DNA of 64,000 nucleotides, from contig CM082576.2 in assembly GCA_040954595.2 (NCBI GenBank), positions 18,027,028 to 18,091,027 of the forward strand, in the 5' to 3' direction. The DNA is from Balanoglossus misakiensis (taxonomy: Eukaryota > Animalia > Hemichordata). Below, piece by piece: positions 13,474-46,215 of the stretch (position 1 is the first letter of the stretch; each line of letters starts with the position of its first letter). The translations under genes and the position numbers were made by a program. The notes under the pieces were generated by a model. That model worked only from the letters and a program-made list of their open reading frames with translations. It was not told the DNA's origin and ran no database searches.

Positions 13474-13734
13474 TGTAGTAAATACCGGTTACTAACCTGG
13501 TAGGTACTACGGGTTGTCTTATTCCGGGCCACAGAGTTTTGCTTGGTACTGGTCGTCAGTCCTGGTAGCGTGTTGCTCTGCTGCTGGTCCGGGTCGTTCT
13601 CGTTCTGATAGTTGAGAAACGTGGGTAAAAACCAGTAGCACAGGTGCAGGGCATTCCGTAGTGCAATTACGTCAGAGGCGTCCCACCTGTACAGCAGGGC
13701 GCCACCAACGGCCAGAAGCCCACAAATTACTACA
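13474..13734 (-). repeat. 3' LTR (261 bp)
   Basis: Identical by eye to 40627-40887; TG...CA ends. Confidence 0.97.
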
Positions 13735-13755
13735 CTCTTCCCACTTTTCTTTTTT
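13735..13755 (-). other. Polypurine tract
   Basis: Minus strand AAAAAAGAAAAGTGGGAAGAG directly precedes the 3' LTR. Confidence 0.85.
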
Positions 13756-13856
13756 GGCAGGATGGTCAACCTAGGGATCTCAAAAGGCTAGAGAAGTTAA
13801 CGTATTTTTCCCACCCCTGCAATCTGCCAACCTCATGGTCTTGGCGAGATTGATCC

Positions 13857-16631
13857 CTAGTGATATAGACGTCTGGTGTTACGGACAGTTGCTTCAAGAA
13901 GGTGCACTAGATCAGTCCCCCTTGAGTTAGCAACAGCCACGGCCACATCCCCTATAAGAGCTGGAGTACTGGTTACATCACGAGGGCCCCCAAGATACGG
14001 CGAATCTGTTTCGATTAACAGACGCTCGATGGGCACCTCCTTCAAAGCTCGAATCTGGCAACGGTCAAATTTGGTGGTCGTGATGGAGAAACCGAAGTAA
14101 CAATTCTTGAAGCGCTTCGACCACCTTTGAACAGTGTTGACCGTACCAGTAAAATTGTGGATATGTATTTTCTGCCGTGGCGAACACCATTCCTGTACTA
14201 ATTGCAATGCTTGGCAATGCACATCTGACCCATACTGGTCCCCATATGGCCCTCTAATGTGCAGGACTAAGGGTTTCTCAGGCACACACATGGCAAGTGC
14301 TCGAGAGAGAACCCTGTCTTGGGCGCTCCAGTATTTACTTGGCTCTGTGCGGTCGAGACCCACCTCCCCAAGGGCGGCTACCTGTGTGCTCGTGACAAGC
14401 CGCTTGAGGGCTTTAAAGGTCCTTTCGTCGGCTCTTGGAGCTTTCCTTGGATGGATCCCGATGGCGATACTCCAACCTTTGGGCCGGTTCAAATCCATGG
14501 GGTAGTACTCCGGATCGCAAAAGACCTCGACGCCCCCAATGATGTTGACAGGAAAATTCGCCCTTGGGCCATTATGCCAGTTAACCAAAGCTACTGATGT
14601 TGCAGGGCAGTCCCTACCGCGAAATCGAGCCAGTGTTCGGTCAAGATGAAAGTGGGAATCCATGGCTTCCAATAGACTGTCTGATTGTAGATAATCCTGT
14701 GCTGTCCCCTGTAACTCTTGCTCAATAGGTTGGTCAGCTTGGGATTCTATTGTAATTGAGTCCAGTATCACGTATTCAACCGGGAGCTCAATTTCTGATG
14801 GTGGGATCGGGACTGAGTCCTGTATCACGTGATCAACAGGTTGCTCAGCCTGTGGGATCCTTTCAGTACAGTCTAATGAAATTTCTTTCTCTACTTGATC
14901 ACCCCATGAGATTCCCTGGGACGTGGAGTCCTGTATCACGGATTCAACAGGTTGTTCCATTTCTCCCATACCTATAATCATTGCCAAGTCTTGGTGTGCG
15001 TCCTCCACATGGATCGGACTATTTCCTGAGGCTACAGGTGAATATGTGATCTCCCTCGCATGAGTTGGAGATTGGAACTCACCTTCATTTTCGGAAACCA
15101 TTTCCTGGTCGACACAGGAGCCAGTCTCCCCCCTAGGGGTAGGTGACCGCGGCTCGCCGTGATCTGCCTCAGGATTCTCTGTTACCATTTCCTGGTCTGC
15201 ACTTGGCGAGCAGGAGACAGTCTCCCCCGTAAGGGTAGGTGACTGAGGATTTCCGTGCTCTGCCTCGGGGCCTTCCAGTTCCGGCATCGGATGACATGGT
15301 GAATGCGAGGTGATCTCTGCCACTGGGGTGGGAGACCGGGACTCACCATGCTCCCTTGGGGGTACCACGGGTTGGAAGGCTTCCCGCTGCTCCTCAGTCA
15401 GGTGCGAAAGGAGGATGACGAGAATCCTCCAATGCAGCAGGACGGCTGGTGAATTCGGTGGGTGCAGCGAGAATCGTCGTGGTACGGCCCATCCGCTGGT
15501 CTGGCACAGTCGCTTCATCATCAGACAGTTGGCTTCGGTGAGCGCAGAGGATGCTGGGACTTCTTCCAAGTGATGTTGCAGGAAGTACTCCAGCAGCTTG
15601 GTGACAGTTCCTCTGGGGCCCAAAACCCAGCCCGCCAGCTTCAGCAGGGCATGAGTAACATCAGCTGTCTGCATGATAAGGGGGTTTTCCTGTAGACGGG
15701 GGTCGATATGGTAGAAGAAGCAGTGCCGTTTGAGACGTTTGGAGGTCTGCCCACATCCTGGAATAGGGCAGGTACATGAGCGGCTGTTGGTAGATTTTCT
15801 GCTTCTTCTACCCCTACAGGAATTGGTCGCCGCAGTCGTGGTGGTCTTCGACTTCGGCACCCCCTTCGGCTCCTGTGCCATCCATACAACGGAGCGTCGC
15901 CGCCGCTTCCCGTCACGCTGTATGGTCACCTCCAAACGAGATTCCTCACCCCGCTCTCGCTTCTTTGGTTTCGTGGCCGCCATCTTCTGCGTTCCTCTCC
16001 GTGGCTGGCTTGATGTCTTTCGTGGTGGCTCACGGGGGGTACTTTTCCGTGGCTCTGCCAGGGGTCGCCGCGCAGCTACTGCTGAGTACAATTCACGGGG
16101 CGCTGCAGAAGATGGTTGTGTCGATGTTCTTCGGGGTGAGGATGCCCGCGATGTTGAGGCGATGGAGGTGACTGGGTCCCTGCCTTGCATGGTGTCTTCT
16201 ACTACAACCGTCTCCCCCGACTTCTTCAGCAGGTGCTTGACAGTCGGGAGATCGGGCTGCGTCTGTAGGCGAACATCACGGCAGGGTCCAGACGTGACGG
16301 TACTGCTGGGACGGGACTTCCGTTGCGGGATCCTGTTCTTATGCGGATCCCGATGGAGAAGATGCTTGTACAGCCATTCCTCGGAGAAGATCACATCGGC
16401 TTCGCGGCGTGTAGTCTCCACCCAATGCCAATGGCCTCTCCGAGATGCTAGTTGATACTGGCGTAACAGCATCCTCTCCTTTTCAGGGAGCGTGACCTTG
16501 GCCAGCCCGATGCCGTAGGTGAGGTCGAGTGGTGGAAGCAGAATCCGTTTCCGGTCTGCCTCCACCACTTCTTGCCAGGTCATATGCTGCTTCTTAGGGC
16601 GAGGTCCCCCGCGATACCGCTGGGAGTCCAT
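13857..16631 (-). CDS. ORF3 (~924 aa): basic/disordered N-terminus, C2H2-like zinc finger, acidic repeat linker, C-terminal TatD-family metallo-nuclease
   Basis: TatD motifs DSHFHLD, IGIHP, ALGEVGLD, PLVLHIR, HIHNFTG, YFGFS, LLIETDSPY (13857-~14665). Zinc finger CPIPGC...HCFFYH at ~15706-15777. First ATG at 16631, just after the pol stop. Confidence 0.9.
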   Translation of the reverse strand: MDSQRYRGGPRPKKQHMTWQEVVEADRKRILLPPLDLTYGIGLAKVTLPEKERMLLRQYQLASRRGHWHWVETTRREADVIFSEEWLYKHLLHRDPHKNRIPQRKSRPSSTVTSGPCRDVRLQTQPDLPTVKHLLKKSGETVVVEDTMQGRDPVTSIASTSRASSPRRTSTQPSSAAPRELYSAVAARRPLAEPRKSTPREPPRKTSSQPRRGTQKMAATKPKKRERGEESRLEVTIQRDGKRRRRSVVWMAQEPKGVPKSKTTTTAATNSCRGRRSRKSTNSRSCTCPIPGCGQTSKRLKRHCFFYHIDPRLQENPLIMQTADVTHALLKLAGWVLGPRGTVTKLLEYFLQHHLEEVPASSALTEANCLMMKRLCQTSGWAVPRRFSLHPPNSPAVLLHWRILVILLSHLTEEQREAFQPVVPPREHGESRSPTPVAEITSHSPCHPMPELEGPEAEHGNPQSPTLTGETVSCSPSADQEMVTENPEADHGEPRSPTPRGETGSCVDQEMVSENEGEFQSPTHAREITYSPVASGNSPIHVEDAHQDLAMIIGMGEMEQPVESVIQDSTSQGISWGDQVEKEISLDCTERIPQAEQPVDHVIQDSVPIPPSEIELPVEYVILDSITIESQADQPIEQELQGTAQDYLQSDSLLEAMDSHFHLDRTLARFRGRDCPATSVALVNWHNGPRANFPVNIIGGVEVFCDPEYYPMDLNRPKGWSIAIGIHPRKAPRADERTFKALKRLVTSTQVAALGEVGLDRTEPSKYWSAQDRVLSRALAMCVPEKPLVLHIRGPYGDQYGSDVHCQALQLVQEWCSPRQKIHIHNFTGTVNTVQRWSKRFKNCYFGFSITTTKFDRCQIRALKEVPIERLLIETDSPYLGGPRDVTSTPALIGDVAVAVANSRGTDLVHLLEATVRNTRRLYH

Positions 16632-16666
16632 GATCTGTACAAGAAAGAATAAGAGACATGATGAGG

Positions 16667-19600
16667 TTACACTGAAACTGCGCTTATTTCGCTTGGTTTG
16701 CAGTTGGGACAAGAAAACAGTGCTTTTTTCTTAATTTCGGTTGGTGTAACATTCACACACGCTCCATGAAACCATTCATAGCAATAATCACACTGGATCA
16801 TAAGTTTCCCATCATCAGGTTTCCTGCAAAGGCAATATACTTCACCCATTCCTGCGCTGTCCTTAAGTAAGGTCTTCCTAAAGGTTACTATCCAGCGAGG
16901 AAGCTCTTTATCCTGGCAAAGCTTTAGCCGATCGTGATGGGCGGTCCAAACCTCTCTTCGCAATTTGATGCGGAAGAGATAGGGTGTGATTTTGGTGATG
17001 ATGACCCCTGGTCCTTTCCAAGGTGGGCATAGTTTCCGGCATTTGCCTTTAGTGGTTCCGGTATCCAACAGATATACTGGATCCCCTACCTTGAAGGACT
17101 GCTTGTTCACTCGGAGGTCGTAATCACGTTTCATTCTTTCTTGTGTGGTCTTCAGTATTTCCCGCGCTGTCTCATGAGAATTCGTTATGGCCTCCTTCAA
17201 TTCATACACATACCCCTCATGAGATTGGTCAGTGTTTGTCCTGGGAGGCCGGAATACAAGATCAGCGGGCTGGTTTATTTCCCTACCTAACATCATCCGG
17301 TTGGGCGTAAAACCAGTGCTGCGGTTGACTGAAGAGCGGAGAGCTCCGGCGATCTGTGAGAGAAATTTATCCCATTCTTTCTGTGACTTGATGTAGCATC
17401 TGATTGCGTTCATCAAAGTGCGATTCTGCCGTTCCGCCTGGCCATTAGCAGATGGTCTGTAAGAAGTGGTTCTTGTTTTATGGATATGAAGAATCTCACA
17501 AATCGCTGAAAATAACTGACTTTCAAAGTTTCTTCCCTGGTCAGTGTGAATTTCAAATGGATACCCGAACCTGGTAAAGAATTCAGCTACTGCGGCGTGT
17601 GCTGTTTCCTCAGCATTTTGTGTTGGCAGCGGTATACATTCTACCCACTTGGTGAATTGATCTACCATTACCAGGATATACTCATTACCCCGAGGTGTCT
17701 TGGGTAACGGCCCTAGGAAATCCAAGTGAACTCGTTCCATCGCTGCCCCCGCATGAAATAGGGTCAGCTGATGTCGGTGGTGTCTGTGTGCTTTCTTGTT
17801 GTGATTGCAAATTGCACACATTGTGACATACTTGCGAATGTCGTGGGACATCCTATACCAATGGTATTTGGTCCTGATTCTGGCTTGAGTGCGCTGTATT
17901 CCCTGGTGCCCACAAGATGGAATATCATGATTCAACCGTATAACTTCATCTTTCATGGTATTAGGGATGACTAGTTGTATGGTGTTTTCATCTGTGGCCG
18001 ACTTTCTCCACAGTACTCCCTCCTCAATGAAGTATAGGTCACGGTTGATCCAATAATTCTTTGCTGCAGGGCTGGAGAGTCTCAGCTCTCCTTCCTCAGG
18101 AACTTTCCCAGTTTCAAGCCATGTGATGAGAATCCCCAGTGTTTTATCAGTCTGCTGTGCCTGTTGGTATTCTTTGTGAGAATATCCTAGGATGGCTGTT
18201 CCCAGTTTAGTGGAATCCTCTCTGGATAGTATGCAGACTTGTACAGGATCCGGAAAGTGGGAAATTTCGAGGTTCGAATGAGGCACGTCGATTAGTTCAT
18301 CCTGGACTGTGTCACTGGTGATTCCGCAGCAAGTTAATAGACCCAAGTTACCTCCAGGGTCCCATGGCCAGGTCTCTTCATCTTGAATTGCTGGTTGTAT
18401 TCGTGGGTTCATGATACCGGTACATTGGTTCACCACATATGGCCCTTCGGTTTGGTGGAGTTGGCTGTTCCCGTGTTCGTTTCTGGGTTCAGCCATGGTC
18501 AGGGGAATTACATCATCCACCTCCTTGATGAACGGGCTCCAGTTTCGATGTGCTCTGCTGCAATAGTTGCATCCCCCGCAAGGTAAGGATTCCAATTTTG
18601 TTCCATGCTCAAAATTGGTGCAGGCACTTTGCTCGGGTAATCTTGACAGGGAGTCGGCGTTGATGTGTTGTTTTCCTGGTCGGTGTTGCACAGTAAAGTT
18701 GTACTGGCTTAGTTCTTCTAGCCAGCGAGCTAATTGGCCTTGTGGTTCTTTGAATCGTATTAGCCATAGCAAACTGTGATGATCTGTCCGTACCAGAAAT
18801 TTGTTACCAAGCAAGTAGTATCGAAACTGCCGGGTGAACCTTACGACTGCCAGCAATTCTTTTCTTGTGGTGCAGTACCGTCTCTGTTCAGGTGTCAGGG
18901 CATAACTTCCATAAGAAATTGTTCTCTCCTTGCCGTTCTGTATCTGGGATAACTCAGCTCCGATGGCAAAGTCTGAGGCATCCGTGTCTAGAATGAAGTT
19001 ATCCTTTGTATTGGGCAAGGTCAGAACAGGGGCAGCGGTGAGTGCTTTCTTGATGTCCTCAAAAGCTTGATGTTGCTCATACCCCCAGGCGAATGGTTTC
19101 TTCCCGGTTACACTGTACAGAGGTACCGCTAACTTGGCATAATCCTTGATGAAGGCGCGATGGTAGTTCGCAAATCCTGCAAATTTTTCCACGTCCTTCG
19201 TGTTGATAGGGATTGGCCATTCTTGGATCATCCGAATAGATTGATCTTCAAGAGATATTCTGTTTCTACCAACTTTCCTACCCAGGAAACTTACTTCCTG
19301 TTGGAATAACTCACACTTTCTTGGCTTGAGTTTCAGTTGGTACTTCCGTAGTCGTTTGAAGACTTCCCGGAGATTTTTAAGGTGTTCTTCGAAGCTTGAT
19401 CCGAGCACCATTATATCATCCAGAAATGCCAGTACGATGTCCCAAGTTAGGCCCCTTAGTACTAGGTTCATCACTCTGGAGAAAGTAGCAGGTGCGTTGC
19501 ACAGACCAAACGGCATTCGGGTAAATTCGTACAAACCGTATTTGGTGGTGAAAGCCGTTTTCTTGCACTCGGGTGGATTAATACTTATCTGCCAGTATGC

Positions 19601-21058
19601 CGAGTTGGCGTCCAACTTGGAGAACCATAGACATCCTGATAGAGTGTCCATACACTCCTCCACCAATGGCAGCGGAAAAACGTCCTTTACGGTGATGTTG
19701 TTTAGGGCTCGATAATCCACACACCAACGCACGCTTGCATCTCGTTTTCGCACTAGAACTGGTGCCGAAGCCCATTCGGAGATTGATGGTCTTATAACTC
19801 CGGCATTCAGCATTTTCTTTAAGTGGGCTTCTTCTTCCCCTGCAAAACACATTGGAGTGCGCCGTAGACGTTGCTTTATTGGTGGATTGTCTTTTGTGTC
19901 GACGCTATGTGTGATTGCAGTGAAATTTCCCAGATCAAATTCGTCCTTGGCGAAAACATGACTGCAGGATCTTTCAAACAGATTTCCTAAATGTGAAGGT
20001 AGCCCGCCTACCGGCTGAGGGCGTACTTCAGTCCTCTGTTGGATGTCAGGTGATGGGACGGTGATCACCTCCACTTCTGTAGCTGATGCGATAGGATCCT
20101 TGCTCTTCAGAGTTATATAATTCTCCGTCGGGTTGACTAAACAAACCTTAGGTGATTGTTCCCCCGAGTGAAGTGTCCTGGGCATCATTACTTTCAATCC
20201 CTGGGTTGGTTCTACCAAATAGTCGGTTAGATCCGTATCGAGTAAACAGGATATTCTGACCACACTATTCGGTGGGATGATTGTCCGTCGCTTCAAAGTT
20301 ACCTTTGCCACTTTTGGTGAATGATCCCTCTGTCCAAGGGTCATAGGTATGTGTTCCTCCCCCAAATGGAGCCAGTTGTTACTCATGTTGATGGTTGCTC
20401 CATTTGCTTGTAGGAAATCAACTCCCAGTAGCATTTCGTCGCCTATTGGGGCTACGTATATATCGGCATTGAAGACGGCACGTCCCAGCTGGATGTCAAC
20501 GGGTCCGACCAGGTTGGCTTTCATGGTTAACTGTCTTCCAGCTGTTTGCATGGTAACTTCCCGCAATATTGGAGGTTTTACTCGCAGACTGTTGTACAGT
20601 TGGTCAGAGATAATAGTGACTTCTGCGGCGGTATCGATGATAGCGGTAGCGGACTGGTCTCCAATTTTTGCTGGGATGCTATACATTGAACTGGACACAA
20701 GTTGGTTAATGACAACCATAGGCATGTCATTAGCTTCGGATGTTGCCATACTGGTCTTTGACGATTTTGTCTCTTCCACTGTTGAGTTGGTCACATCTGC
20801 GCAATGTGTACCATCATCAGTTGGAGTTGGTATAGTCGTTGTATACACATCTGCACAATGTGTATTGACATCAAGTGTTACCGATTCAGCTGATGGCGAT
20901 GGCACGTCAATATTACAGTTGCGATCGCCCTCCGTGGAAGCGTTGAGGCCGTAGGTTATGGGTTGTTGGGTCAAACTTTGGCCTCTGGGCTTGACCCTTT
21001 GGTGTTTAATGGACTGGCCGGCGCTGTTTCCTTCTTTTCCGATGTTCCATGGGGACAT
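16667..21058 (-). CDS. pol: Pol polyprotein: aspartic protease, RT, RNase H, integrase, C-terminal PHD finger
   Basis: IIDTAAEVT (PR); VRWCVDYRALN, MPFGLCNAP, AFLDD (RT); LDTDAS, TDHHSL (RH); H-x6-H...CAIC, DFLGP, TDQGRNF, NGQAERQN (IN); YCLC...CDYCYEWFHGAC...CPNC (PHD). 1463 uninterrupted codons. Confidence 0.97.
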   Translation of the reverse strand: MSPWNIGKEGNSAGQSIKHQRVKPRGQSLTQQPITYGLNASTEGDRNCNIDVPSPSAESVTLDVNTHCADVYTTTIPTPTDDGTHCADVTNSTVEETKSSKTSMATSEANDMPMVVINQLVSSSMYSIPAKIGDQSATAIIDTAAEVTIISDQLYNSLRVKPPILREVTMQTAGRQLTMKANLVGPVDIQLGRAVFNADIYVAPIGDEMLLGVDFLQANGATINMSNNWLHLGEEHIPMTLGQRDHSPKVAKVTLKRRTIIPPNSVVRISCLLDTDLTDYLVEPTQGLKVMMPRTLHSGEQSPKVCLVNPTENYITLKSKDPIASATEVEVITVPSPDIQQRTEVRPQPVGGLPSHLGNLFERSCSHVFAKDEFDLGNFTAITHSVDTKDNPPIKQRLRRTPMCFAGEEEAHLKKMLNAGVIRPSISEWASAPVLVRKRDASVRWCVDYRALNNITVKDVFPLPLVEECMDTLSGCLWFSKLDANSAYWQISINPPECKKTAFTTKYGLYEFTRMPFGLCNAPATFSRVMNLVLRGLTWDIVLAFLDDIMVLGSSFEEHLKNLREVFKRLRKYQLKLKPRKCELFQQEVSFLGRKVGRNRISLEDQSIRMIQEWPIPINTKDVEKFAGFANYHRAFIKDYAKLAVPLYSVTGKKPFAWGYEQHQAFEDIKKALTAAPVLTLPNTKDNFILDTDASDFAIGAELSQIQNGKERTISYGSYALTPEQRRYCTTRKELLAVVRFTRQFRYYLLGNKFLVRTDHHSLLWLIRFKEPQGQLARWLEELSQYNFTVQHRPGKQHINADSLSRLPEQSACTNFEHGTKLESLPCGGCNYCSRAHRNWSPFIKEVDDVIPLTMAEPRNEHGNSQLHQTEGPYVVNQCTGIMNPRIQPAIQDEETWPWDPGGNLGLLTCCGITSDTVQDELIDVPHSNLEISHFPDPVQVCILSREDSTKLGTAILGYSHKEYQQAQQTDKTLGILITWLETGKVPEEGELRLSSPAAKNYWINRDLYFIEEGVLWRKSATDENTIQLVIPNTMKDEVIRLNHDIPSCGHQGIQRTQARIRTKYHWYRMSHDIRKYVTMCAICNHNKKAHRHHRHQLTLFHAGAAMERVHLDFLGPLPKTPRGNEYILVMVDQFTKWVECIPLPTQNAEETAHAAVAEFFTRFGYPFEIHTDQGRNFESQLFSAICEILHIHKTRTTSYRPSANGQAERQNRTLMNAIRCYIKSQKEWDKFLSQIAGALRSSVNRSTGFTPNRMMLGREINQPADLVFRPPRTNTDQSHEGYVYELKEAITNSHETAREILKTTQERMKRDYDLRVNKQSFKVGDPVYLLDTGTTKGKCRKLCPPWKGPGVIITKITPYLFRIKLRREVWTAHHDRLKLCQDKELPRWIVTFRKTLLKDSAGMGEVYCLCRKPDDGKLMIQCDYCYEWFHGACVNVTPTEIKKKALFSCPNCKPSEISAVSV

Positions 21059-22130
21059 TCCCTCTTAAAATGGCCTATCTCGCCGCACCCATAGCAACCA
21101 CGGCTTCTCGGAGATGGGGATCGGTACCTTGATGTCTGCTGCGTTGTCACCACTTTGGTTAATTCGGCCAGTTGGGTGGTGACAGTCTGCAAAGTTGCGC
21201 TGATTGCCGACATCTGCGTCTCCAGCCTCGACATCCTCCCCTGCATCTCAGTTCCTCCGTCTTTGCTTCTCGGGCGGATGGGAGCTCTTTCAGGAGAGGG
21301 TGATTGTTTTCGCTCGTACCTGGAGACAGATCGTGCTTCGATGTTGGCTTTCGGGTATTCCGGATCAGGACTTACAAATCGTACTTCCCGCCTCTGCGAT
21401 CGGATGCCATAGATTGCTTGATGATTATACTGGAATCTTTTGACAGTATCGATCGCTGCTTCGATGGAAGTTGGACGCTGATTTGCTGCCCATTGGCCTG
21501 CTTCTCGATCACAACATCCTTGGCAAAAGCGCATCACAGCTTGAAGCTCTATGGTGGCATCGCTGCTTTCTTGAAATGCCTGCATCGCAAGTGAATAAAC
21601 CCTGTCCGCCCATTCTTCTAATTTCTCCTCGGTGTTTTGTCGAATCTGGGCGAACTGAAGCTGACTGGATTCTGGAATCTCTTTCAAGCCGAATCGTTTC
21701 TCCAGTTTTTTGAGCAGCTCGTGATAGCTGACGTCTGCGTTTTTCTGGAGGATCCTGGTATAAACTTCACTTGCTTTCCCCTCTAAACACCAGCACAGAT
21801 AATTTTTGCATTCATTGAATGACATGTCCTGCATCTCGGCAAATTTCGTGAATTTTACCTGATATGCCTGCCAGTTTCCGGAGCCATCGTAGATTAGCGT
21901 CCTGGGAACTGACATTGGGATGTGACGATGACTTGATCTGTCCATCCGGTTATCATGCTGGTAGTAGGGTTGAGTTCTGGGAGGAGCGAATTCTGTTGGA
22001 TAATGGCCATCATAATAATCCGGTGATGCACCCGCTCGTGGTCTGGACACATTCACCCGTGATGGACGATAATTCTGCTCATCTTCAGGCCAGGTCGCAT
22101 ATCGCTGTTCATCGCGAACACTTCGTGGAT
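20971..22130 (-). CDS. gag: Gag, C-terminal part (capsid-like region and CCHC zinc knuckle)
   Basis: YDGSGNWQAY...LEGKASE...LEKRFG...QIRQ..EKLEEWA and CYGCGEIGHFKREC. The first residues of the listed ORF (MHKPGLSSCA) come from the CACTA end. Confidence 0.93.
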
Positions 22131-22998
22131 ATGCACAGGATGAAAGCCCAGGTTTATGCAATGCTTAAAGTTGGTATAAATATGATTAAAGCTGTTCTTG
22201 CAATCATCTTTATGCAGCATAAAGATATTCATTTATACATCTTTATGCAACTCTATAAATTGGTATAATGGCTTACCACAAATAATCACCTTTATGCACT
22301 CTCATAAGGGTGAATAATTCATGTACACCTTGCATCACATTTATGCATTCTAATAAAGGTGAATAAAAGGATGAATTTCTATACACCTAGCGTCACGTTT
22401 ATACAGCTTTATGTCAGAATGATCAGAATATTTGCTTTGGCTTCTGATTCTCATTTCTCCTTTTGGAATATTCACTTTATCCACAGTGAGTTTACGAATG
22501 TTGGGGGAATAAGTGTCATTAACAATGAAAGACTTATACCTCCTTTGTCCAGTACACTTATTGTTTCATGTATAACTAAAGGGTAGAATATATGTTAGTG
22601 ATAGTTCTTTTCTGTGGCCAGCTTTGTCTTCAGCCAATCTTTTCATTCCTGCACACGTACCAGTACACTCCACCACCGTCAAATAGATCACACATACACA
22701 AGCTATATATACATGCAGTGGGACATTGTCATGAATTCTATGATTTTTTATTACTATAAGTACTAGTAACTACTATTTACAATATAATGAAAAATTTATT
22801 AAACTAGAAAGTAAAAAAACTGAAAGAATAACCTTTACGAACTAAAATACGAACTTAAATAAAAATCACAAACACAAGTAAAAACAATTCTAAAGTAATT
22901 TCAAATGTCATTAAAAATGAAAAGTCAAGTAGAAATATTTAGTTAAAAATAGAAAAACAAAATAAATAAACACATTATAAAATGAAGTACAATATCAA

Positions 22999-31100: not shown

Positions 31101-32540
31101 TACTCTGGCTTTGACAGGGATAACTGGCCAAAGAGAACAAAGGCAAAGCATAATAAATATGCCCATGATGTAAATAATTGTAAAACTGTCAAAGAATCTA
31201 ACAGGCTTTCTCAGAAGTATGGGACATATTACTCTGTTCTTGTTGAGCTACCATACTTTGATTGTGTTAAGATGATTTCAATTGATCCAATGCATAACTT
31301 ATTTCTTGGGATTGGTAAAAAGATGTTCAAGGTATATCTAGATATGTTCTTATCACCCAAAAAACTTAGTGTTCTTCAAAATAGAATACAGTCCATGACA
31401 GTAGCATGTGACATTGGTAGGATACCCAATAAAATTGCTTCAAATTATGGGAAATTTTCTGCTGATGAATGGAAGTATTGGATTACTGTTTTTTCCATGT
31501 ACTGCTTGAATGGGCTTATTCCTGAGAATCACTTATTATGTTGGGAACGGTTTGTTTTAGCCTGTAAAATATTATGCAAGCCATACCTGTGTGAAGCTGA
31601 TATCAGAAAAGCTGACATCTTGTTATTGAACTTTTGCATTAAGTGTGAGACGCTGTATAGTAAGAAAATGATTACTCCAAACATGCACCTTGTGTGTCAT
31701 CTGAGAGAGTGTTTATTTGACTATGGACCCATTAGTGCATTTTGGTGCTTCCCTTTTGAGAGATATAATGGGTATTTTGGGGATATTCCCACTAATAACA
31801 GGTCAGTAGAAATACAGTTTATGAGGAAAATTACAGTACTGAGGTTTGTACAAAACAAAGAAATGAAGAATGGTCTTTCTGGGATATTCTCAAATCTGAT
31901 TGAAAGACCAGGATCAAAACAAGATGTATGCAAGGCGAGCAATTTCTTTCTTCTGAGTGCTCCTGATGCAAAATTAATGGAAAACATTAACTGGGGATGT
32001 AATGAATCTGTATATGTCCCAAATGCGTATGTTGAAGGAGCCCTTTCTGTTGAGGATACAAACCTAATTAAAGCTGTATACGAGTATATGTATCCAAATA
32101 AAGTTGCAAGCTGTATTAGTAAACTTGTAAAAAAATATGCATATGTATATATCTTTGGAGAGAGATTTGGGTCTAAAATGGCATGCAGAATGTTAAGAAG
32201 TGCAAGAGTTATGGCTAAATGGGCAGGTAACACTGGGGACTTTGATATTTCTCCATGTAATCTTCGACCTTGTCAGGTTGATTGGTATTTTAGTCACTCT
32301 GTTGAGATAGATGGCAAGAGACTTGTACACAACTTTGCAATGGTAAGATGGTATAAGCCACATGAAAACAAGGACAAATTTGGTAATTGTGTTGAAGTCT
32401 GGCAACAGAAGACATTTGAACCATATGGGAAGTGTAGCTTTTTGCCAATACATCGTATTTCTTGCCGCTTTGCCTGTACTGATTTGAAAGATAATAGCCA
32501 AGTTGTCAGTGCAATCAACCGCAGAGTTGTTGCATATTAA
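28171..32540 (+). CDS. CACTA/EnSpm-type transposase, spliced (exons ~28171-28173, 28472-28685, 29108-29292, 29847-32540)
   Basis: DIYDGNIW, LSMNVDWFQPF, DIPAARKIGGF, CSKC, IDPMHNLFLG, PNMHLVCHL, GPISAFWCFPFERYNG. Upstream exons have canonical GT/AG sites and stay in phase, encoding CPVC...H and an acidic tract. Confidence 0.9.
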
Positions 32541-35500
32541 TATAAGAGAGAAAGAAACCTATGTCATGCTCCCCTGTAATTTTCAGTGTTAAGTATGATG
32601 CATCTTGTATATTTTTCATAGTTGTACATTTTACTTGAATATTCATATCTGAAATAAATTTATTACTTTCATGAATGAATTACTTGTCTCCAGTAACTTT
32701 GTTACCCACATAAACTAGTGTGTATGTGTGTGTGTTTTGCTTAAGGGTCAAATTAAGAAGTACATGTATACAGTTTCATGAAACAAAGCAGACATAAGCT
32801 TTTTCTGCTATGCATGGTAAAGGCCTCAGCCCCAGGGGACAAAATGATTCTGCCCACAGACTGAACAGTTTATTGGAAAACAACAATGTGTTAATAATCT
32901 ATCATTATTTGACCTGGCTGTGTAACGCAGCTATGGGGGTGGTGCTCTGCTGGTTTCCCCACCAGTAGCTGTGATCCATATATCATAACGAAATTGGGTC
33001 ATTTTAATACTGCGACCAATCTTTAATAGGGAGGACGTTTAAACGGCAAAGGGAAACAAAACGAGCGTAATTCAGGCGATTTTCCAAGGAGTTTTCAAGA
33101 TTCAAATACAAGCAGCAAACTTTGACCTTCACTCTGATCTGATTCATTGTCTTTGTGCAAAGACTCTAATTAGCATATCAATGGAAGTCATTCACTGCTT
33201 GGGAATCTTGAGTACACAATGGAAAAATCATAAAGATTGAAGGCCGTGTCAGACATGCTGGTTAAAACCGCGTTTTATGATGTGGTTGGCAGTTGTATCA
33301 CTACTAAGCTAATATCGCATTTACAGAACTAAAATTGAACTGATCACACACATCGATAGCGCCAAACAAGGGGTGTATAATGATTGCATAAAATGAGTTA
33401 AATTGTCGATTTCGCCCGTGCAGTGTGAACAAATTGCGCGTAGTGCAGTCAGTAGATTCGCAATCCAGTTGCTGTCATGTAGGGCATAATTGAGAAGACG
33501 GTGCGGCCGGCACTGTTCGCTAGCACATGTCATTAGCTCGACTACAGTCTGAGTTCGGTTCGGAGAGCATCTACTTCTCGACTGGATATTAAAGAAATTT
33601 TGGCAGTCAATTATATGCTGCAGGGTGCTTTTACATTCAGATGTACAGCGCAACATGGGTTACAATTTCGTGTTCAAACACCGGTAGCAAGAGGTCAGAA
33701 TTTGACTCTGGCAGCTCTTCAATTACATTCGCATTCACTCAATAACAATTTCTGGGTGAGACGTAAGTCTCTCCCCAGTCCGTGCCCCTTCAAGATTTTG
33801 AGAGGGTGTACATACAAGTTACATGGAAGTATCAGACTCTCTCACATCCCCTCTCGCCGCCTATAACTATACGCAGGGTTGTGGGAGAGTCTGTCCGCGG
33901 AAGCGGTCGTGGGGGTGGTGGTTACCGTTAGGCCGTAAACGAAAACATGAAAACTGTTTGAGATTCAATGTTTCTGGTCTTTTATACTGATGTGATCAGA
34001 AATAAGAAGAGAAACCATACTTGTCGCTTCAGTTTGGAGTATATTATTTGAAATGATGAAAAACGCGCAGGGACGAACGCACGTCTTTGGAAACTTAGGC
34101 AGTGATCTAAGAGAAATAGTATAGAGAGGCGTGCAGTTTCTCAGACACGCAGTTTTATCTGAATTGCGTGTAGTGCGGCACAGCGCTGTAGAAGTCATAA
34201 AACTGCCGCAACATCGAAGTAAGCCGCTTCGTGGGAGCTACATCGCGGGCAATAATGTCAGTTGAAGTCGGTTTGGACTTATGACTTCGCTGAATATTTT
34301 AAGCGCCGAACCACGATAGATTTCTTGCCTGTCATAACTCATCGGTGCCGATACCAACTAGGCCAAATCTGATTTTTTCTCTTCTAAAGACTTCGTAACA
34401 CATGCCGAGCTATGTTTTCGCCCCAAGTGTCGCGCTCTGTTCATTGTCAGTATCGGGTACGTTTCAGTGATTCATTGAGTTTCAAGAACTTTGAATTCAC
34501 TGATAATAAATTACCGGACTCATCTACATGTAAATGTCTACAGTTCGAGTCAACTGCTCGCTTATGTTGACATCAGTAGTTTCGTCTACCGTGACAGCCT
34601 TATTTATTGAGTACAAATTCAAGTCTACATTTCTTTAATCGATTTATTCTCGAGGACCGATGTCAGGATTCATAGATTTTTTATCGACTTGTCGCCGCAA
34701 TACTCGTTCACACAGGTTCCCGAGAACCGACTACGGCCCCCAGACTCCGGTTCTCCGGGAAACTGTCTTTCATTGATAAACCGAGTTGCGTCAGTACCGG
34801 TAATTCACTGGCTCAAAATTCGTGGTATGGGGAATTATTCGCTTGTTGGCTATTAAAAAATAAAAGTCTCTGAAAGCCGGTGAGATCGTGTCTGTCTGTA
34901 CTACTTCGGCAATGAAACTCGGCAATATTCTGCTTGTTAAGGTCTAGGGCCTACCAGTTCACGTTTCATAGCGTCTTGATGTGCTGCACTCTCTGCCTGC
35001 GCACTTTGATGGTGTCTTGTCTCAGTCACTTGCACGACGTCTTGTTTTATACGATCGTTTATTGAATTTCTGGCAGAATTTACAGTTCATAACGTCACCA
35101 GGACGGTAATACAACCAACGTTCACGGTCAGTTTACCACTAGAACGAAACATAAGTTTTCGGCGGTTACGGGGCCTTCCCGTGTTTTTCACTAAGTGTGC
35201 GAAACGATTTATCATAACTCCCTGAATCGGCAAGATTTCTGTTGCGTCAAGAGAAAAGGTTCTGCTACATTTTTACTTAATTCTAACATTTCGCGTGCAT
35301 GATTAAGAGAACGCGCAGCAATCGATGCGTCCTTTGATGCTGTATGTGCCGCGGTCGGTGCAAAGATTTCTACGCTACAATCAAATTATCATTCTCTGTC
35401 GAACAATGAAAATCCAAACTCAAATGGCCAGCGCTGATGACTGATATAATTCGATGTCATTTTAATTGTGACATTTTATAATTGGCGATACGACTAAATA

Positions 35501-38500
35501 TTATGTTGCACAAGACCTTGTATTCCATTGCCGCGAGCAGAGACATACATATAGCATCAGTTGCTGTCGTAAGCGTTCGTGGACTCGGAGGAATATCCTG
35601 TTTAACCTAATAATATTAATCAACACAATTAGTGTAATTCTGATCAGAGCGGTCATAGGCTATCACCTATCACGCTCAAGTCGAAACGGAGCTCGCGAAT
35701 GTAGGCAGGAAAACACAGACTAGTCTCGAACGCGTAATTACGGCCATTTCCGAATTCAAGTCAACGAAATTCAGGTGTTGTAACTAATACTGTAACGCTC
35801 TACAGTCATTGGAAATGAACTTCTAGTAGAATTAACAGGATTTCTATTTGCACTCGAAGCGAAAGTTTCCCTTGCTCGGTTGAAACGAAAGTCTGCAACC
35901 TTGATCCTTCGATTGTAAGAAGCATCAGATTATTGGCACGATCGTCGTCCAGTCGATTACATCGTGCTGTGTGTGCACGGTGTGTTGTCGACTGAATTCC
36001 CCGTTAACAGGGCAGGGGAGAAACAGGAATCACTAGAGCCATGCTAGTAATTGGAACACAGAGAACAGCTCTCCGTAATATTATATTTTAATATGACGGG
36101 GTTCGCTAGATACTCAGTTTCATTTGAGTAAACGCAAATCGGCACGCCATTTGCCGATTTAGGCCTATATATCACCGCGACGAGTCGAGTCTCTTTTTCT
36201 AATAATAGCTGTGTTTCACGTGATCGCTGACTGGACCACCGGCTCCGTCGAATGTTAATATTTCAACAGGCTGAGCATAATTGAGCGTACTATCTGTTGT
36301 AATTTTGGTTGGAGCGGCAATGAACGAAATGCGATTTCGCTGACAAAATACTGGCCCCAGTATTTAGAAATAACGATTAGAACGCTTCTACGCGAAAAAT
36401 TTCGAGATATTCTCGTCGGAAAAACACGCTTTCGGGGATGGGCTTAATTTCAATTGGATTTTGTTTCTACAATTGGTCAGTAGGCCTATTATGCCAGAGT
36501 TATAGCCATGTTTCAAGACATTCTTTGCTGGTCTATCGATGCTGTCCTGATCAGCAACACAGGCACGCACCACAGGCCAATACTTTTTATTTGTTCGAAC
36601 TACTATAGTTCATGAACGTTTGGGGGGGGGGGGGGGTTATGTAGTTGGAAGGCATCCAGTGCAGCGCTCATTGCCAGCCCACACAAATTAAGAGCGCCGC
36701 ATCCGAAACGTAGGCTGTTGTTTCGTATGGGCTGTGCTAGGCCTAGTAGGGATGTAATTTATATCATCAGCCTTCCTTTTACATGTAGGTACATTGATAA
36801 TCACTGCAGTGGCAACGCGCGTTCAGCGCGTCCACACTTGATTTTATCGGGCTTTACATTACGATTACAGGGATCAGCATCGCATACGTACAAATAAAGA
36901 TACATGTAACCGATGTTCTTGGTGAGACAATAGTTGGACGTCATTTTAGACATGCCTGTGTTGTGCATGTGTAATTCTGAGAAGCTCGTTCTCCACAGAC
37001 ATCATTTCGACTCATACAGGGGTCTCGGTGTTAAAAACCTCGAATGTTTGTCTGGAGGGCAAGAACATAAACACACGTTTGACATGTTAATCGGTGCAAC
37101 AGTGGTGGGAACGTTTTCCGTGTGTTTGCACATCAATGTTTATACAAACGCTAAGTTTTACCATTAACCTATGTGCTGTGCAGATCAAAGGACGCCCGCA
37201 CCTTGCAACAAGATACACACACGGTCCTTCTTCACCGCCCCCAGGCAATTTAGACCAACCGAGTCTAAAACCTGGGAAATGTGTTAAAAACGTGCGATAG
37301 ATGCGTTTACGGAATAAACATTACGAAGAGAAGTGCATGTGACTAATGCAAACTAGACGGTTTTTAGATACAACTTTCTTTTACACATGTATGTTTTCTA
37401 TTTATTATTGTTCCGAAGATTCAAGGGGCATACGTTTTCAAGTCCCTTCTCGCTCTCTTCGCTGGAAGAAACATTTTAAACCCAATGCATTACGGGTTAT
37501 TGTGCATTCCTAAAACATACTATAAGTATTGAGTATACTAAGAGTTTTGATGACTACTCTTGTCTGATTTGTAAATATACAGCTCTCCCCAGGCCCAAAC
37601 AGCGTCGGGGGCCCCGACGCTATCACTAATGGCCCAGCTTTCCCCCGACGCATTTATGTCTGCCCGCTATGCCGAACGTGTCACTGTCAACTCCCGTATT
37701 TTTGCCTTATGTCCGCTTTTGTTTTCACCATAACTTGCTGCTTCCTTTCAATTCTTGATGAATAGTGAACACAACTGAGTCATTTCACATCTTTCAGGGC
37801 GTCAATCATGGCTTTAATCACCCTAGAAGCAATATTTGCTGGTTTTGTATCTCTGTATACTTTTCTAGTTTTTATTTTGTCTGTTGTTGGAACCATAGAC
37901 GCATGTTGGAACCGTAATTGGCCAGTTTTGCGCTGTTGGTCACACGTTATTCATGAAAGGATGAGCTTGAAAACAATGTCATTCATGAGGTCACTTCCAC
38001 TATTAGACGCATGTATGCATTATAAGGTCAATAAGCATATAAACATTGTATCATATTGTTCTAACAAATGTTACAGCGCTTAGCGCCATAAATAGGGTTC
38101 CAACCACTGCGTGGTCGGATTTTTTTCATCTAGGAGGCTGAGTGGCATTGCGCGAGTGTCCCGAGATATATGGAGCGCCGCACACGCGACTGTACCTTGT
38201 TGCCTACCGTACTTTGAAATCATATGCCAATGTGTTGTTTATTCGCATAAAAATCATGTCAATGTAATGAAGAGATATTTATTTGTGATTTTTATAACAA
38301 CGGCGTTTTACAAACGCTACAGAGAAGGTTCAAATGATCATTATCGCAACCTGTACTGCGCCTCCACCTGCCACAATCACACACTGATATGCTAATAACC
38401 GATCGTCTGACATATATGACATATACCATAGTCATGACATGATGTTCAAAGCCAGTGGGACCTAGTCGGCCCAATGACATTCGTTCTGGCATGCACTTCA

Positions 38501-38934
38501 AATGTCGATGACATATAGCAAAGCAAAACGGTTAAATTAGGCTATTGTTTCAATTGTATGACTGTCAAAGATCGAATGAGGTGGTGGTATTTTAATAAGA
38601 AAAAGTAGCTAGGCCACCAGTACCGCAAAGTAGCCGACCAGGTTGCCGATGGCTGGCGCTTCCTGAAAACTGTGGCCGTCTTTATAACGTGCATAAATGT
38701 GTATATATTCGTTGAGTCATTTAACCATCTTTATACTTTGCATAAAGGTGCATATAATCGGTAAGCCATTATACTCATTTACGCAACCAATTAAAGGAGA
38801 TAGCAAGATAAACACTGTTGACCAACTTCACACCTCTTTAAGCGGTTGCATAAAGGGGCTTGTAAAAGAAGACCAACTTTATGCAGTATTATGCAATTGC
38901 ATAAAATGAGTTAAAATGCCTATTTCGTGCTGTG

Positions 38935-39448
38935 ATGGTCTACCATACGCAGGAGCATCTGGCCTGTACGCAGGATGGAATGAACTATCATACCCCCGAG
39001 AGTCGGTATGATGTTGACTTACCCTATCCTGCGTATAGTCTGGTTCGTCAAATCGCCTCGATCGAATAGGTGCTTTGGGTTGTTGATGTCGTGAAGGTCG
39101 TTGAACATGTCTGCTTTCGCGTTCTTTCGTGACCTTGTCAATCCTTTCCATCCATTCCTTCATGCTATCTTCATCACTATCCTTCCCGCTGTCTTCCTCA
39201 TCTTCCCAGAACGGGGCGAGATGGGTAGTTGTGTTCATGGATGGTTTGGCTGAAGCACCTGGTGGGTCGAAGTCGGCCATCTCCGTGAATTCTTCGGATG
39301 GTTTGAACCTAGGAATACTGCATACCATCTCATATGTTACATAGCCATGTCGTTCACGTAATCGCAGAATCGCCTTGGCTATTTTCCGTCCCACTCCAGG
39401 TAGACATTGAAGAGTTCCTAGAGTACTGGTGTTGACGTTGATTTTCAT
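38935..39448 (-). CDS. gag: Gag, N-terminal part with a ComEA-like helix-hairpin-helix domain
   Basis: MKINVNTSTLGTLQCLPGVGRKIAKAILRLRERHG matches the ComEA/HHH_3 pattern. Joins 22130 in frame after CACTA removal (AYGRP-YPRSVRDE; 557 aa total). Confidence 0.88.
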
Positions 39449-40613
39449 GATGGCGCGTTAGAAATTATTGAGATGGAAGTTGCAGATACCGTTGTCGGAA
39501 AATATTACCCACACAAGGACAGAGTAATATTTAACAAAGTGATATTACTCGTAATAATTACTGAGCAATACCCAAATTGATCAGTTTGTCACAAGAATAA
39601 TCAATGACAATGACCAATCAATTATATCACAACAATAATAGAACCCGCAATTATACAGAGTAATATAATGTGATAATAAGTACGACTGATATCAATAATA
39701 CAGTAATTGGAATGGCTCACAATAATAAAACTCGCAATAATACTGAGTAATACAATGCGACACCAAATATTATTGATATAGCGAATAATTGAACAGTTTC
39801 AACACTTACCAATTGCTGAGGAATTACAGTTCTGTACTGATACTGTGTGGTACAACTAGTAAAAATGCGAAACAAAGCGGAATTTGTTAAAGCGAAACTT
39901 TTCAGAAGTAAAACAACAAATAAAAGACAAGTCCGAAAGCTGGAACTTGTCCGCACAAAAAGTACGTAAAATTATGACGAAAGGTGCGGTGTACAGAACT
40001 GCCACAAAAAATGGCTTCTTTGACGAAATGGCTTCCTCGTCAATGCAATGGTGGCACCAATACTAGCAGAAAGTTACTTTCCAAGCTATCCGTACACACA
40101 CAACGGCAGTATAACGGGCTAGGAAGTATAACTGCAAATCTTACCTTGCCGTGTTCGGAAGTTCGCCGTACACACAAAAAATACGGTAAGACAAAGTACA
40201 CGTAAAACAACACAGAAATAAGTTGTGAAACTTTTCCTTGAAACGTGCACAGAAAAAAAAACGGCACAGTGTAGCGGAAAATTCCTCTCACTGAATTTCT
40301 TGAACTTGGCCCCAGCTGTCCGAACTTCAATAAATATTACAAGCTTTACCGGAACAACTGGAGATTCGTTCCCAGTTTTCTCTCGACTTCCACTAGTTCT
40401 CTGTCTCCCACCAGAAAAACTAATGAAGACGGTTTCTTGGTGCAAGTGTTGAAAACTGAAAGCACTTGGGCGTCCGCACTACTCCTATAAGTTTCAAGCG
40501 GAAAGCCGCGACGCAACTTTAACGATAGCGAGTACTCCGACTACTTATCCTCAAAAATTGGCAAAAAGTTACCAACGGAGTTTTTTCACCTTTTCTCCAC
40601 TAGGGTTGAAAAG

Positions 40614-40624
40614 TCGCAGCGCCA
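40614..40624 (-). other. Primer-binding site (TGGCGCTGCGA, tRNA-Ser-like)
   Basis: TGG start 2 nt inside the 5' LTR boundary. The tRNA identity is inferred. Confidence 0.6.
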
Positions 40625-40626
40625 AT

Positions 40627-40887
40627 TGTAGTAAATACCGGTTACTAACCTGGTAGGTACTACGGGTTGTCTTATTCCGGGCCACAGAGTTTTGCTTGGT
40701 ACTGGTCGTCAGTCCTGGTAGCGTGTTGCTCTGCTGCTGGTCCGGGTCGTTCTCGTTCTGATAGTTGAGAAACGTGGGTAAAAACCAGTAGCACAGGTGC
40801 AGGGCATTCCGTAGTGCAATTACGTCAGAGGCGTCCCACCTGTACAGCAGGGCGCCACCAACGGCCAGAAGCCCACAAATTACTACA
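40627..40887 (-). repeat. 5' LTR (261 bp)
   Basis: Direct repeat of 13474-13734. Confidence 0.97.
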
Positions 40888-45274: not shown

Positions 45275-46215
45275 TCATTCTGTAACATAGTCATTTCGAT
45301 AACGTTCTGGCATCCTGATCACACGTCCACTTGATGTTCGCTTTTCAGATGGATGCTTTGTTGTTTCGGGAGCATCTTCCAGTGGCAAGGCTGTTTGTGC
45401 ATCGTCAATCGGCATGTTTTCATCGTCTGGTGGTTCCTGGTCATGTGCTGATATCATACTGGATTTGGGCCACGGTGCTTTCAATAGATGTCTCCTGTTT
45501 CGCCGGTACTGTTGGCCTTCGGGAGTGGTGACGATGTATGATCGTGGGGATCCATGTTTTCCGGTAACAGTTGCTGGTTTCCACACCTTGTCACATCTTA
45601 TTCCTACAGTCTCGTCTTCTTTGATTTGTGGCAGTGTTTTGGTGTGTTGGTCATAGTATTTCTTCTGCTTCTCTTGTCGGATCAACAACTCAGATCTTGC
45701 TTCAGTGGCCACTTGTGGACTCAGCATTCTTGGTGAGACAGGTATCTTAGACTTCAACATTCTGCTCATCAATAGTTGTGCTGGTGAGGTGGTCATACCT
45801 GACACCGGTGTGTTTCGGTACTCCAGGAGCGCTATGTATGGATCTTTGTTGTCATCCATTGCCTTTTTGAGCAATTTCTTGACGGTTTAAATGGCTCTCT
45901 CACTCATGCCATTCGACTGGGCATAGGTTGGGCTTGATGTGGTGATTTTGAACCCCCATTCCGTGGCAAACTGTCGGAAACGCTGGCTCGCAAATGGAAC
46001 ATTGTCGGCTAGAACTTCATCAGGAATACCGTGTCGTGCGAAGACTGACTTCATTTGGGTTATCACGGCTTCTGCTGTCTTTGCTTTGAGCAAACCTATT
46101 TCTGGGTACTTCGAGAAATAATCCACCATCAGGAGGTAGTCACTGCCATTCAAATGGAAGATATCAGCCCCAATCTTTTGCCACACGCGCTCAGGAACAG
46201 GGTGAGGTATCAACG
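45275..46215 (-). pseudogene. Integrase core and C-terminus of the Mag element (HHCC domain missing, frameshifted)
   Basis: WQKIGADIF, VDYFSKY, ADNVPF, SNGMSERAI, then a frameshift into ALLEYRNTP...PRSYIV...YRRNRRHL. Confidence 0.88.

Follow-up and report, generated by a model that had tools for sequence, protein, structure and literature searches.

A Ty3/Gypsy retrotransposon of Balanoglossus misakiensis with an HhH-bearing Gag, a PHD finger at the integrase C-terminus and a TatD-family third ORF

The chromodomain of chromoviruses has a targeting role and, to our knowledge, chromodomains are the only natural reader domains found on integrases; the env of errantiviruses comes from spliced RNA. 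In chromoviruses the chromodomain lies at the integrase C-terminus (PMC6338049, available sections). An ING2 PHD finger fused to the LEDGF integrase-binding domain moved HIV-1 integration to start sites (PMC8149907, available sections). The bdelloid rotifer LTR retrotransposons Juno and Vesta carry as ORF3 a DEDDy 3'-5' exonuclease with intact catalytic residues and an inferred function (PMC5408684, available text); in the same portion of that paper TatD is absent, and PHD is named in a reference only, by a title on the PHD-containing ORF1 of CR1/Jockey LINEs. Class II TatD nucleases require an HxH motif and a Glu/Glu/Asp set for activity; TATDN1 and TATDN3 are 3'-exonucleases and AP endonucleases, and TATDN2, which has a long disordered N-terminus, degrades R-loop RNA (PMC10085689 and PMC10711561, available sections).

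The element presented in Table 1 lies in the window, a stretch of 64,000 nucleotides from contig CM082576.2. As far as the available text describes Juno and Vesta, it resembles them in being of Gypsy type and in having a third ORF that encodes, instead of an env, an exonuclease whose catalytic residues are intact, the function being predicted in both cases. It differs in that the nuclease is neither a DEDDy exonuclease nor a GDSL esterase but a TatD TIM barrel joined to a zinc finger and a domain X, and in that an HhH-Gag and a PHD-integrase accompany it across molluscs, hemichordates and an echinoderm. As in chromoviruses, a histone-reader-type module ends the integrase, but this module is a PHD finger of the H3K4me3-reader kind and is expected to recognise an active mark. 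As in errantiviruses and env-carrying Ty3/Gypsy elements, a third ORF follows pol and is preceded by a splice-acceptor-like site; unlike the membrane glycoprotein of those elements, however, ORF3 lacks a membrane segment (hydropathy over 19 residues peaks at 1.38) and gave no match to an env family, TatD being the only Pfam family found. The available text of the errantivirus paper PMC13524379 does not contain PHD, TatD or helix-hairpin-helix. A retrotransposon-borne PHD finger is shared with CR1/Jockey LINEs, although these are non-LTR elements in which ORF1, not an integrase, bears the PHD.

Table 1. Features of the element, its insertion site and the transposon nested in it (positions in the window).
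Feature	Position	Strand	Basis or remark
Target-site duplication GCAG, left copy	13470..13473	.	sequence and satellite-unit comparison
Ty3/Gypsy element, span 27,414 bp	13474..40887	-	10,610 bp without nested element
3' LTR, 261 bp	13474..13734	-	261/261 identical to 5' LTR
Polypurine tract adjoining 3' LTR	13735..13755	-	sequence
ORF3, 924 aa from ATG: N-terminal and basic region, zinc finger and domain X, acidic linker, TatD	13857..16631	-	ORF, Pfam, alignment
TatD domain, class II	13860..14681	-	Pfam E 6e-36, PDB alignments, structure model
C-x4-C-x9-H-x4-H zinc finger fused to helical domain X	15357..15794	-	alignment, model pLDDT 91
Splice-acceptor-like site: pyrimidine tract and CAG, 3 nt before ORF3 ATG	16635..16652	-	sequence pattern
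pol, 1465 aa stop to stop: protease, RT, RNase H, integrase, PHD	16667..21064	-	Pfam
PHD finger, integrase C-terminus	16700..16834	-	Pfam E 2e-8
gag, 3' piece: capsid-like PNMA/Retrotrans_gag region and CCHC knuckle	20971..22133	-	Pfam
Nested EnSpm/CACTA-like DNA transposon, 16.8 kb	22134..38934	.	3-bp ATG duplication, Transposase_21
Transposase ORF of nested element	29847..32540	+	Pfam
gag, 5' piece, HhH at its start (about 39266-39448)	38935..39448	-	HHH_3, PDB matches
PBS-like stretch, TGG start, 2 nt from 5' LTR	40614..40624	-	sequence
5' LTR, 261 bp	40627..40887	-	261/261 identical to 3' LTR
Target-site duplication GCAG, right copy	40888..40891	.	sequence and satellite-unit comparison

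Both LTRs read TG...CA at their ends and, with the short target duplication and the protease-RT-RNase H-integrase order, place the element in Ty3/Gypsy; its Gag has the expected capsid-like domain and CCHC knuckle, though the gene is interrupted in this copy. An earlier note on this DNA had described LTRs identical by eye, a target-site duplication, a polypurine tract and a size of about 10.6 kb once the insertion was removed, and each of these was confirmed. A single GCAG at an uninterrupted site was found in 15 other units of the surrounding tandem satellite array, within which the element is inserted, and the 11-nt PBS-like stretch was found again in two other loci (L076 and L040). Of the three open ORFs that had been reported, ORF3 and pol are open, while gag is present as two pieces flanking the nested transposon. 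Recent activity, also proposed earlier, is supported by the identical LTRs and by gag-junction reads, which revealed copies without the interruption in DNA runs of one sample. The element is likely a recent insertion from an old Ty3/Gypsy lineage found in marine invertebrates, possibly one of the MolGy clades; our RT tree included no named reference sequence, and those clades are defined on RT/RNase H only (PMC6238403). As a tRNA-Gly had been called in the satellite at a distance of 42 bp from the insertion, Ty3-like Pol III targeting was considered; it was rejected because an Rfam search of the array gave no match at E 0.5 and the call was confined to one of about 18 units.

The transposon that splits gag had been called a CACTA element at 22131-38934. 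Transposase_21 (Pfam E 5e-15) and the 3-bp target duplication assign it to EnSpm/CACTA; its termini are CACAG...CTGTG, with no literal CACTA or CACTG end, and its start is three nucleotides further in.

Pfam searches identified HHH_3 at the start of gag (E 3e-8, 34 bits against a cut-off of 27), in agreement with the ComEA-like HhH noted before, and PNMA, Retrotrans_gag and zf-CCHC in the second gag piece; the HhH matched EEPD1 and ComEA in the PDB, and TIGR00426 scored under its cut-off on it. The HhH-Gag was present in 15/15 core loci and 4/4 sister loci and in 0/17 others, as scored by a profile built from 12 of these loci, and a single 2111-aa protein combines HhH, Gag, Pol and PHD. The Gag HhH likely binds DNA, and would do so without sequence preference. 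Pol overlaps the end of gag by 94 nt in a different frame and lacks 18 residues, in frame, between protease and RT compared with all 14 relatives with a pattern match (23 tried).

That Pol ends in a PHD finger, as had been claimed, was confirmed by Pfam. No chromodomain was matched in pol by Pfam at E 0.1; the PHD occupies the integrase C-terminus in its place. Its best PDB matches were PHF2, PHF8, CXXC1 and Spp1, and its C4HC3 ligands are intact. The aromatic cage of PHF2 is formed by Y7, Y14, M20 and W29 (PMC9898751). Across 77 PHDs the equivalents of Y7 (76/77), M20 (77/77) and W29 (77/77) are kept, while the fourth position, Y14, is aromatic in only 18/77 and is Asp in this copy. With whole ligands and three of four cage positions, the domain has the residue pattern of H3K4me3 readers of the PHF2/PHF8/CXXC1 type, and judged from its residues it probably binds H3K4me2/3. 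Reading of H3K4-methylated histones would likely steer integration, and we propose tentatively, with slightly less than even confidence, that the PHD biases insertion sites. The only known insertion site, that of this copy inside a satellite array, is unexpected for an H3K4me3-guided integrase and counts against this best explanation. It speaks for an alternative that we consider possible but unlikely, in which PHD and HhH are general chromatin or DNA tethers that would raise integration efficiency with no choice of chromatin state; the mostly missing fourth cage residue and the resemblance of the HhH to the non-specific binders ComEA and EEPD1 point the same way. Against general tethering stand the near invariance of three cage residues across 77 PHDs and the identity of the top PDB matches, all four of which are named above.

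With respect to expression of ORF3, an acceptor-like site ahead of the ATG was found in 11/14 loci compared with 34/519 pol ATGs, in an ATG-anchored test devised after the result of a stricter rule and leaving out four broken loci; the stricter rule gave 4/17 loci against 7/53 pol windows. No splice donor pattern was observed after the PBS in five loci, and the leader of this element has two donor-like sites, at 40144 and 39809. ORF3 would probably be made from its own spliced message.

The TatD domain and zinc finger that had been reported in ORF3 both stood. The metal site (H660, H662, E756, H791, H825, E874 and D876 in ORF3 numbering) has the class II arrangement of HxH followed by Glu, His, His and Glu-x-Asp, and the model (pLDDT 95) is a TIM barrel whose best Foldseek matches all belonged to the TatD family (TM 0.69-0.77). 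The same residues and fold occur in YcfH, YjjV, TATDN2 and TATDN3, and a Cys-Asp-Pro motif presumably recalls TATDN2. All four zinc-finger ligands were invariant in 51 aligned rows, and behind the finger lies the conserved, helical domain X, which had been missed. Domain X had no Pfam family and Atlas scores below 0.9 with no common family; Foldseek matched nothing in PDB or BFVD at E 0.001, and the best VIA Z was 3.7. These results do not establish a new fold.

TatD ligands were intact in this element and in 16 loci at 27-61% identity, except where one locus (L077) was frameshifted. Mean identity was about 37% for TatD and 75% for integrase, and the distances of the two correlated (rho 0.63, n=16; 0.45 without L035; p 2e-4). 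pN was lower than pS in 120/120 pairs, and dN/dS is not given because synonymous sites were saturated; by these comparisons TatD is under purifying selection. In a tree without eukaryotic cellular TatD, the element TatDs formed their own branch relative to 15 prokaryote-like TatDs. With the ORF3 alignment, searches of viral contigs recovered 11 loci of ordinary TatD-like type (24-32% identity); with the pol alignment they recovered none.

ORF3 is a predicted active two-metal 3'-5' exonuclease, and very probably has been kept as an active nuclease, to judge from its residues. Its likely task would be to trim single-stranded intermediates, RNA or DNA, that arise in the element's cycle; we give slightly less than even odds to action on these intermediates as opposed to action against host defence, and an element with an RNase H of its own has no evident need of a further nuclease. 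That RNase H is among the points in favour of a counter-defence protein, destroying or masking the cDNA, RNA:DNA hybrids or small-RNA guides used in host sensing and silencing, as are the encoding of ORF3 as a distinct gene preceded by an acceptor-like site of its own, its basic patches and its lack of a membrane segment, the faster evolution of TatD than of integrase and a dedicated domain X of no named family. We regard this role as rather doubtful: faster divergence than that of integrase cores is usual for enzymes, no host target is directly evidenced, and catalytic residues alone leave the substrate unspecified. Retention of TatD as a binding scaffold and not an enzyme would be in keeping with family members that lack catalytic residues (P0008, P0023 and P0121); it is improbable, however, as all metal ligands are present in the element-linked copies read, bar the frameshifted one.

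To place these modules in a wider family, relatives were fetched by pol alone, giving 143 loci, of which 132 had an integrase match and 21 a PHD. A TatD ORF on the same strand was found in 17/17 PHD-bearing loci with at least 2.5 kb downstream and in 1/43 PHD-less loci (at 4 kb downstream, 10/10 versus 0/20), so that sisters lacking ORF3, which the earlier note had named as a refutation, were not found among eligible PHD-bearing relatives. One locus, L035, has TatD without PHD. The same module order was thereby recovered in 17 loci from six assemblies (10 from one record), most of them on collapsed repeat contigs that lack a complete LTR pair with target duplication. Domain searches (HHH_3, PHD and TatD_DNase) backed all three modules, and an Acanthaster planci gene model unites integrase, PHD, domain X and TatD; the named relatives are molluscs, hemichordates and this one starfish. 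In the reverse test, 16 of 23 element-type TatD matches in five records had integrase or PHD upstream, two had another element part and five lay on contigs too short to tell. The three modules are almost certainly a stable lineage trait, and the lineage would inherit these captures together. A one-time capture of ORF3 as a passenger of this copy or family, or a chimeric assembly, might be thought of from the broken state of this copy and from the fact that no contig examined spans the whole stretch, but is refuted by the linkage counts across loci and assemblies, the correlated distances, pN below pS and the reverse test, and is opposed by the starfish gene model and by the perfect LTRs and target duplication. 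In the RT tree, which comes from a quick search with SH-aLRT as its only support measure, the modules seem to have been gained in the order HhH, TatD, PHD; this order is tentative and rests on few sister rows.

Taken as a whole, an old Gypsy lineage with a PHD that reads H3K4, a non-specific HhH and a spliced-message exonuclease ORF3 that trims intermediates is the reading we narrowly favour. The combination of PHD-integrase, HhH-Gag and TatD ORF3 was not described in the literature searched, with Repbase, Dfam and GyDB outside its scope, and within that scope the earlier remark that no described lineage of this kind was known holds. A more speculative proposal, and one we think unlikely, is an undescribed phylum-crossing clade forming the active-chromatin counterpart of chromoviruses, in which the PHD would read H3K4me3 to find promoters and an env-style spliced, TATDN2-like nuclease, aimed by a new zinc-finger fold, would clear R-loops or single-stranded intermediates there. 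An H3K4me3-type PHD on an integrase would, if true, be a natural version of engineered HIV-1 retargeting, and the clade includes a built-in comparison in its sister elements without PHD. Among the non-env third genes of LTR elements, the TatD ORF3 represents a second class of nuclease, and it includes a domain that is well folded and belongs to no named family. ORFs of these elements were also found filed as host or bacterial genes (TATDN3, YcfH-like, BPTF and 'TatD family hydrolase [Sedimenticola sp.]'), and such misfiled ORFs can fake mollusc gene-family expansions and contaminate bacterial bins.

The element, a minus-strand Ty3/Gypsy retrotransposon, belongs to a Gypsy clade in which three captured modules are inherited together: an HhH ahead of gag, a PHD finger behind the integrase and a TatD-bearing ORF3. 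The earlier note's observation holds and its interpretation gains support, the functions of these modules being proposed from sequence. Related loci were fetched by pol alignment alone in two scans, the best 80 matches of each yielding 64 and 79 loci. Among the 143 loci listed, 132 contained an integrase and 21 a PHD behind it. Domain X, the conserved helical domain behind the ORF3 zinc finger, and TatD were found on the same strand in 17/17 listed PHD loci that are followed by 2.5 kb or more of DNA (one TatD is cut by a contig end and one locus is decayed); the remaining 4 have shorter downstream stretches. Sister copies lacking ORF3, which the earlier note had named as refuting its reading, were not among these PHD relatives. 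By comparison, TatD was present in one of the 43 listed PHD-less loci that reach the same 2.5-kb limit, namely L035, and at 4 kb the matches listed gave 10/10 PHD loci versus 0/20 PHD-less loci. The 17 linked loci come from six assemblies, 10 of them from one record, and most lie in bacterial bins or metagenomes which likely hold animal-host DNA. As many are collapsed repeat contigs, full LTR pairs and target duplications were not seen at these 17 loci. When a TatD alignment was instead run against five of these records, an integrase or PHD lay upstream of 16 of the 23 element-type matches above 160 bits (12 of the 16 already found by pol), another element part lay beside 2, and for 5 the contigs were too short to allow a verdict. 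Integrase, PHD, domain X and TatD are combined in one Acanthaster gene model, as are HhH, Gag, Pol and PHD in a single protein of 2111 aa. Using an HhH profile built from the window element and 12 of the scored core loci, HhH was detected ahead of gag in 15/15 core loci (12 in frame and stop-free), 4/4 sister loci and 0/17 others. Dozens of Gypsy contigs (loci L012-L075) turned up in bacterial bins with labels such as Sedimenticola, Thiodiazotropha and SUP05; they likely stem from animal-host DNA, and their ORF3s carry names of bacterial TatD hydrolases.

An RT tree of 85 rows, built by a quick search with SH-aLRT as its only support, placed the window element together with all PHD-bearing rows in one 17-row group (99), nested in a 26-row group (96) with the sister loci L030, L035, L040 and L081. 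All four sister loci have HhH, none shows a PHD, and L035 also has TatD. The simplest order of gains on these few rows would be HhH, then TatD, then PHD; since L035 combines HhH and TatD with no PHD, it may mark the stage before PHD gain. TatD and integrase distances were correlated (rho 0.63, n 16; 0.45 without L035; p 2e-4), which fits inheritance of TatD along with the element. In a tree built without cellular eukaryotic TatD, the element TatDs formed one branch against 15 prokaryote-like TatDs. In the subgroup made up of L035, L182, L184 and L191, ORF3 is shorter (about 500-590 aa) and domain X is weak.

The window copy itself is described in the table. Its LTRs, judged identical by eye in the earlier note, proved so at every position; GCAG is duplicated at both ends, and a PBS-like stretch and polypurine tract lie where expected for an LTR element. 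The insertion occupies one satellite unit, and the empty site with a single GCAG is present in 15 other units of the surrounding array. Pfam matched all the proposed accessory domains: HHH_3 (E 3e-8) where gag begins, PHD (E 2e-8) after protease, RT, RNase H and integrase in pol, and TatD in ORF3 (E 6e-36). A second gag piece carries capsid-like and CCHC domains. The claim of three open ORFs held for pol and ORF3 but not for gag, which is split here by a 16,801-bp DNA transposon; this insertion, previously called CACTA, does encode Transposase_21 but has CACAG...CTGTG ends, with an ATG duplication. Because gag is interrupted and pol has an 18-residue in-frame gap relative to 14/14 relatives matching the pattern (23 tried), the window copy is likely defective. 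Copies without the nested insertion exist as DNA, as read at the gag joint in both DNA runs of one sample mapped across the insertion: the joint skipping it had depth 345 in X1 versus about 100-120 inside the nested element, and 1617 in X2 versus about 240-550, depths which do not give a copy number. One X1 contig holds the right end of the nested transposon beside 177 letters not fitting the window, so in that run the transposon likely sits at another site.

Features of the window and of the element within it
Feature	Position	Strand	Remarks
Broken Helitron	909-5478	minus	Helitron_like_N, DUF6570, OTU protease domain
Coding tandem repeat	3527-4897		63 bp, 18 copies, within Helitron
Satellite array	about 5970-13473 and 40888-42410		units about 440 and 530 bp; adjoins Helitron
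Gypsy element LTRs	13474-13734 and 40627-40887	minus	261/261 identical, TG...CA ends
Nested transposon	22134-38934
High-depth repeats in nested transposon	about 24400-26200		DNA runs
Stretch skipped by a joint in nested transposon	26148-29476		DNA runs
Region with two LINE-like RT pieces	43129-49549	minus	on both sides of second Gypsy-type element
Second Gypsy-type element, broken	45275-48710	minus	34% RT identity to nearest locus
RNase H-like fragment	50046-50570		Pfam E 2e-5
Stretch between inverted repeats	56136-60446		4.3 kb; repeats 424 nt, 99%

Gag-Pol of this family works by ordinary reverse transcription and integration. The best solved-structure matches of the PHD were PHF2, PHF8, CXXC1, Spp1, DIDO and BPTF. 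The PHD pattern fitted 77 of 96 Pol matches, and in these the PHF2 cage positions (PMC9898751) were kept as Y7 in 76, M20 in 77, W29 in 77 and Y14 in 18. The PHD would likely bind methylated H3K4 and tether the integration complex; according to a review (PMC8149907), an ING2 PHD fused to the LEDGF integrase-binding domain did the like for HIV-1, redirecting its integration to start sites. The HhH, best matched by EEPD1 and ComEA, would likely hold cDNA or chromatin with no sequence preference. The sole mapped insertion of the element, in a satellite array, counts against PHD targeting and favours PHD and HhH tethering without targeting, a tentative alternative compatible with the other readings.

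The TatD residues HxH, Glu756, His791, His825, Glu874 and Asp876 (ORF3 numbering) are kept in the window and 16 loci, apart from the frameshifted stretch of L077, at 27-61% identity. The predicted TatD model (pLDDT 95) is matched by TatD structures. HxH marks class II TatD (PMC10085689). Both E. coli TatD and TATDN2, which degrades R-loop RNA, use the corresponding Glu, Glu and Asp for catalysis (PMC10711561). ORF3 has basic patches and, as computed on its sequence, no membrane segment. We favour ORF3 as a nuclear 3'-5' exonuclease, likely acting on single-stranded RNA or DNA intermediates and aimed by the zinc finger and domain X. That ORF3 is instead a counter-defence protein seems unlikely, and a TatD serving as a scaffold more improbable still. 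ORF3 as a mere passenger, or the arrangement as an artefact, is barely credible; pN was below pS in 120/120 TatD pairs, at saturated synonymous sites. The exonuclease would likely be made from a spliced message: a pyrimidine tract and YAG lay right ahead of the ORF3 ATG in 11/14 elements versus 34/519 pol ATGs, four broken loci being left out, while an earlier, stricter rule gave 4/17 versus 7/53.

Searching 1.84 billion representatives with ORF3 returned 206 proteins with E values no higher than 1e-30. Both domain X and TatD were present in 109 of 152 matches examined, and domain X in 85 of the 88 representatives whose TatD is preceded by 200 residues or more. Domain X has no family in Pfam; with the zinc finger it has a predicted fold (pLDDT 91). 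Named relatives include the hemichordates Ptychodera flava and Glandiceps talaboti, the molluscs Ostrea, Saccostrea, Crassostrea, Mytilus, Dreissena, Mactra, Mizuhopecten, Haliotis and Elysia, and Acanthaster planci; Ptychodera comes nearest, at 53% across the N-terminal half, which may point to a hemichordate host. Three long TatD relatives, P0008 (clustered with Ostrea edulis LOC130052597), P0023 and P0121, have lost metal ligands and are possibly domesticated genes; P0008 has the zinc-finger/domain X unit twice.

Among described elements, bdelloid Juno and Vesta come nearest, with a DEDDy exonuclease as their ORF3 (PMC5408684), and chromoviruses offer an analogue of the integrase tail. No TatD, HhH-Gag or PHD-integrase was found for LTR elements in the portions of literature covered, which lie outside subscription journals, Repbase, Dfam and GyDB. 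Searched by term, PMC13524379, PMC6431247, PMC6238403, PMC8220671 and PMC10294476 yielded no PHD or TatD; PMC3286476 names PHD for a neighbouring gene only, and PMC6962438 places a TATDN2-named gene in a squid Hox cluster. The lineage may already have an RT-based name among MolGy1-16.

One satellite unit in the window was called tRNA-Gly by ARAGORN, with no Rfam support. The RNase H-like fragment presumably resembles tyrosine-recombinase retrotransposons.
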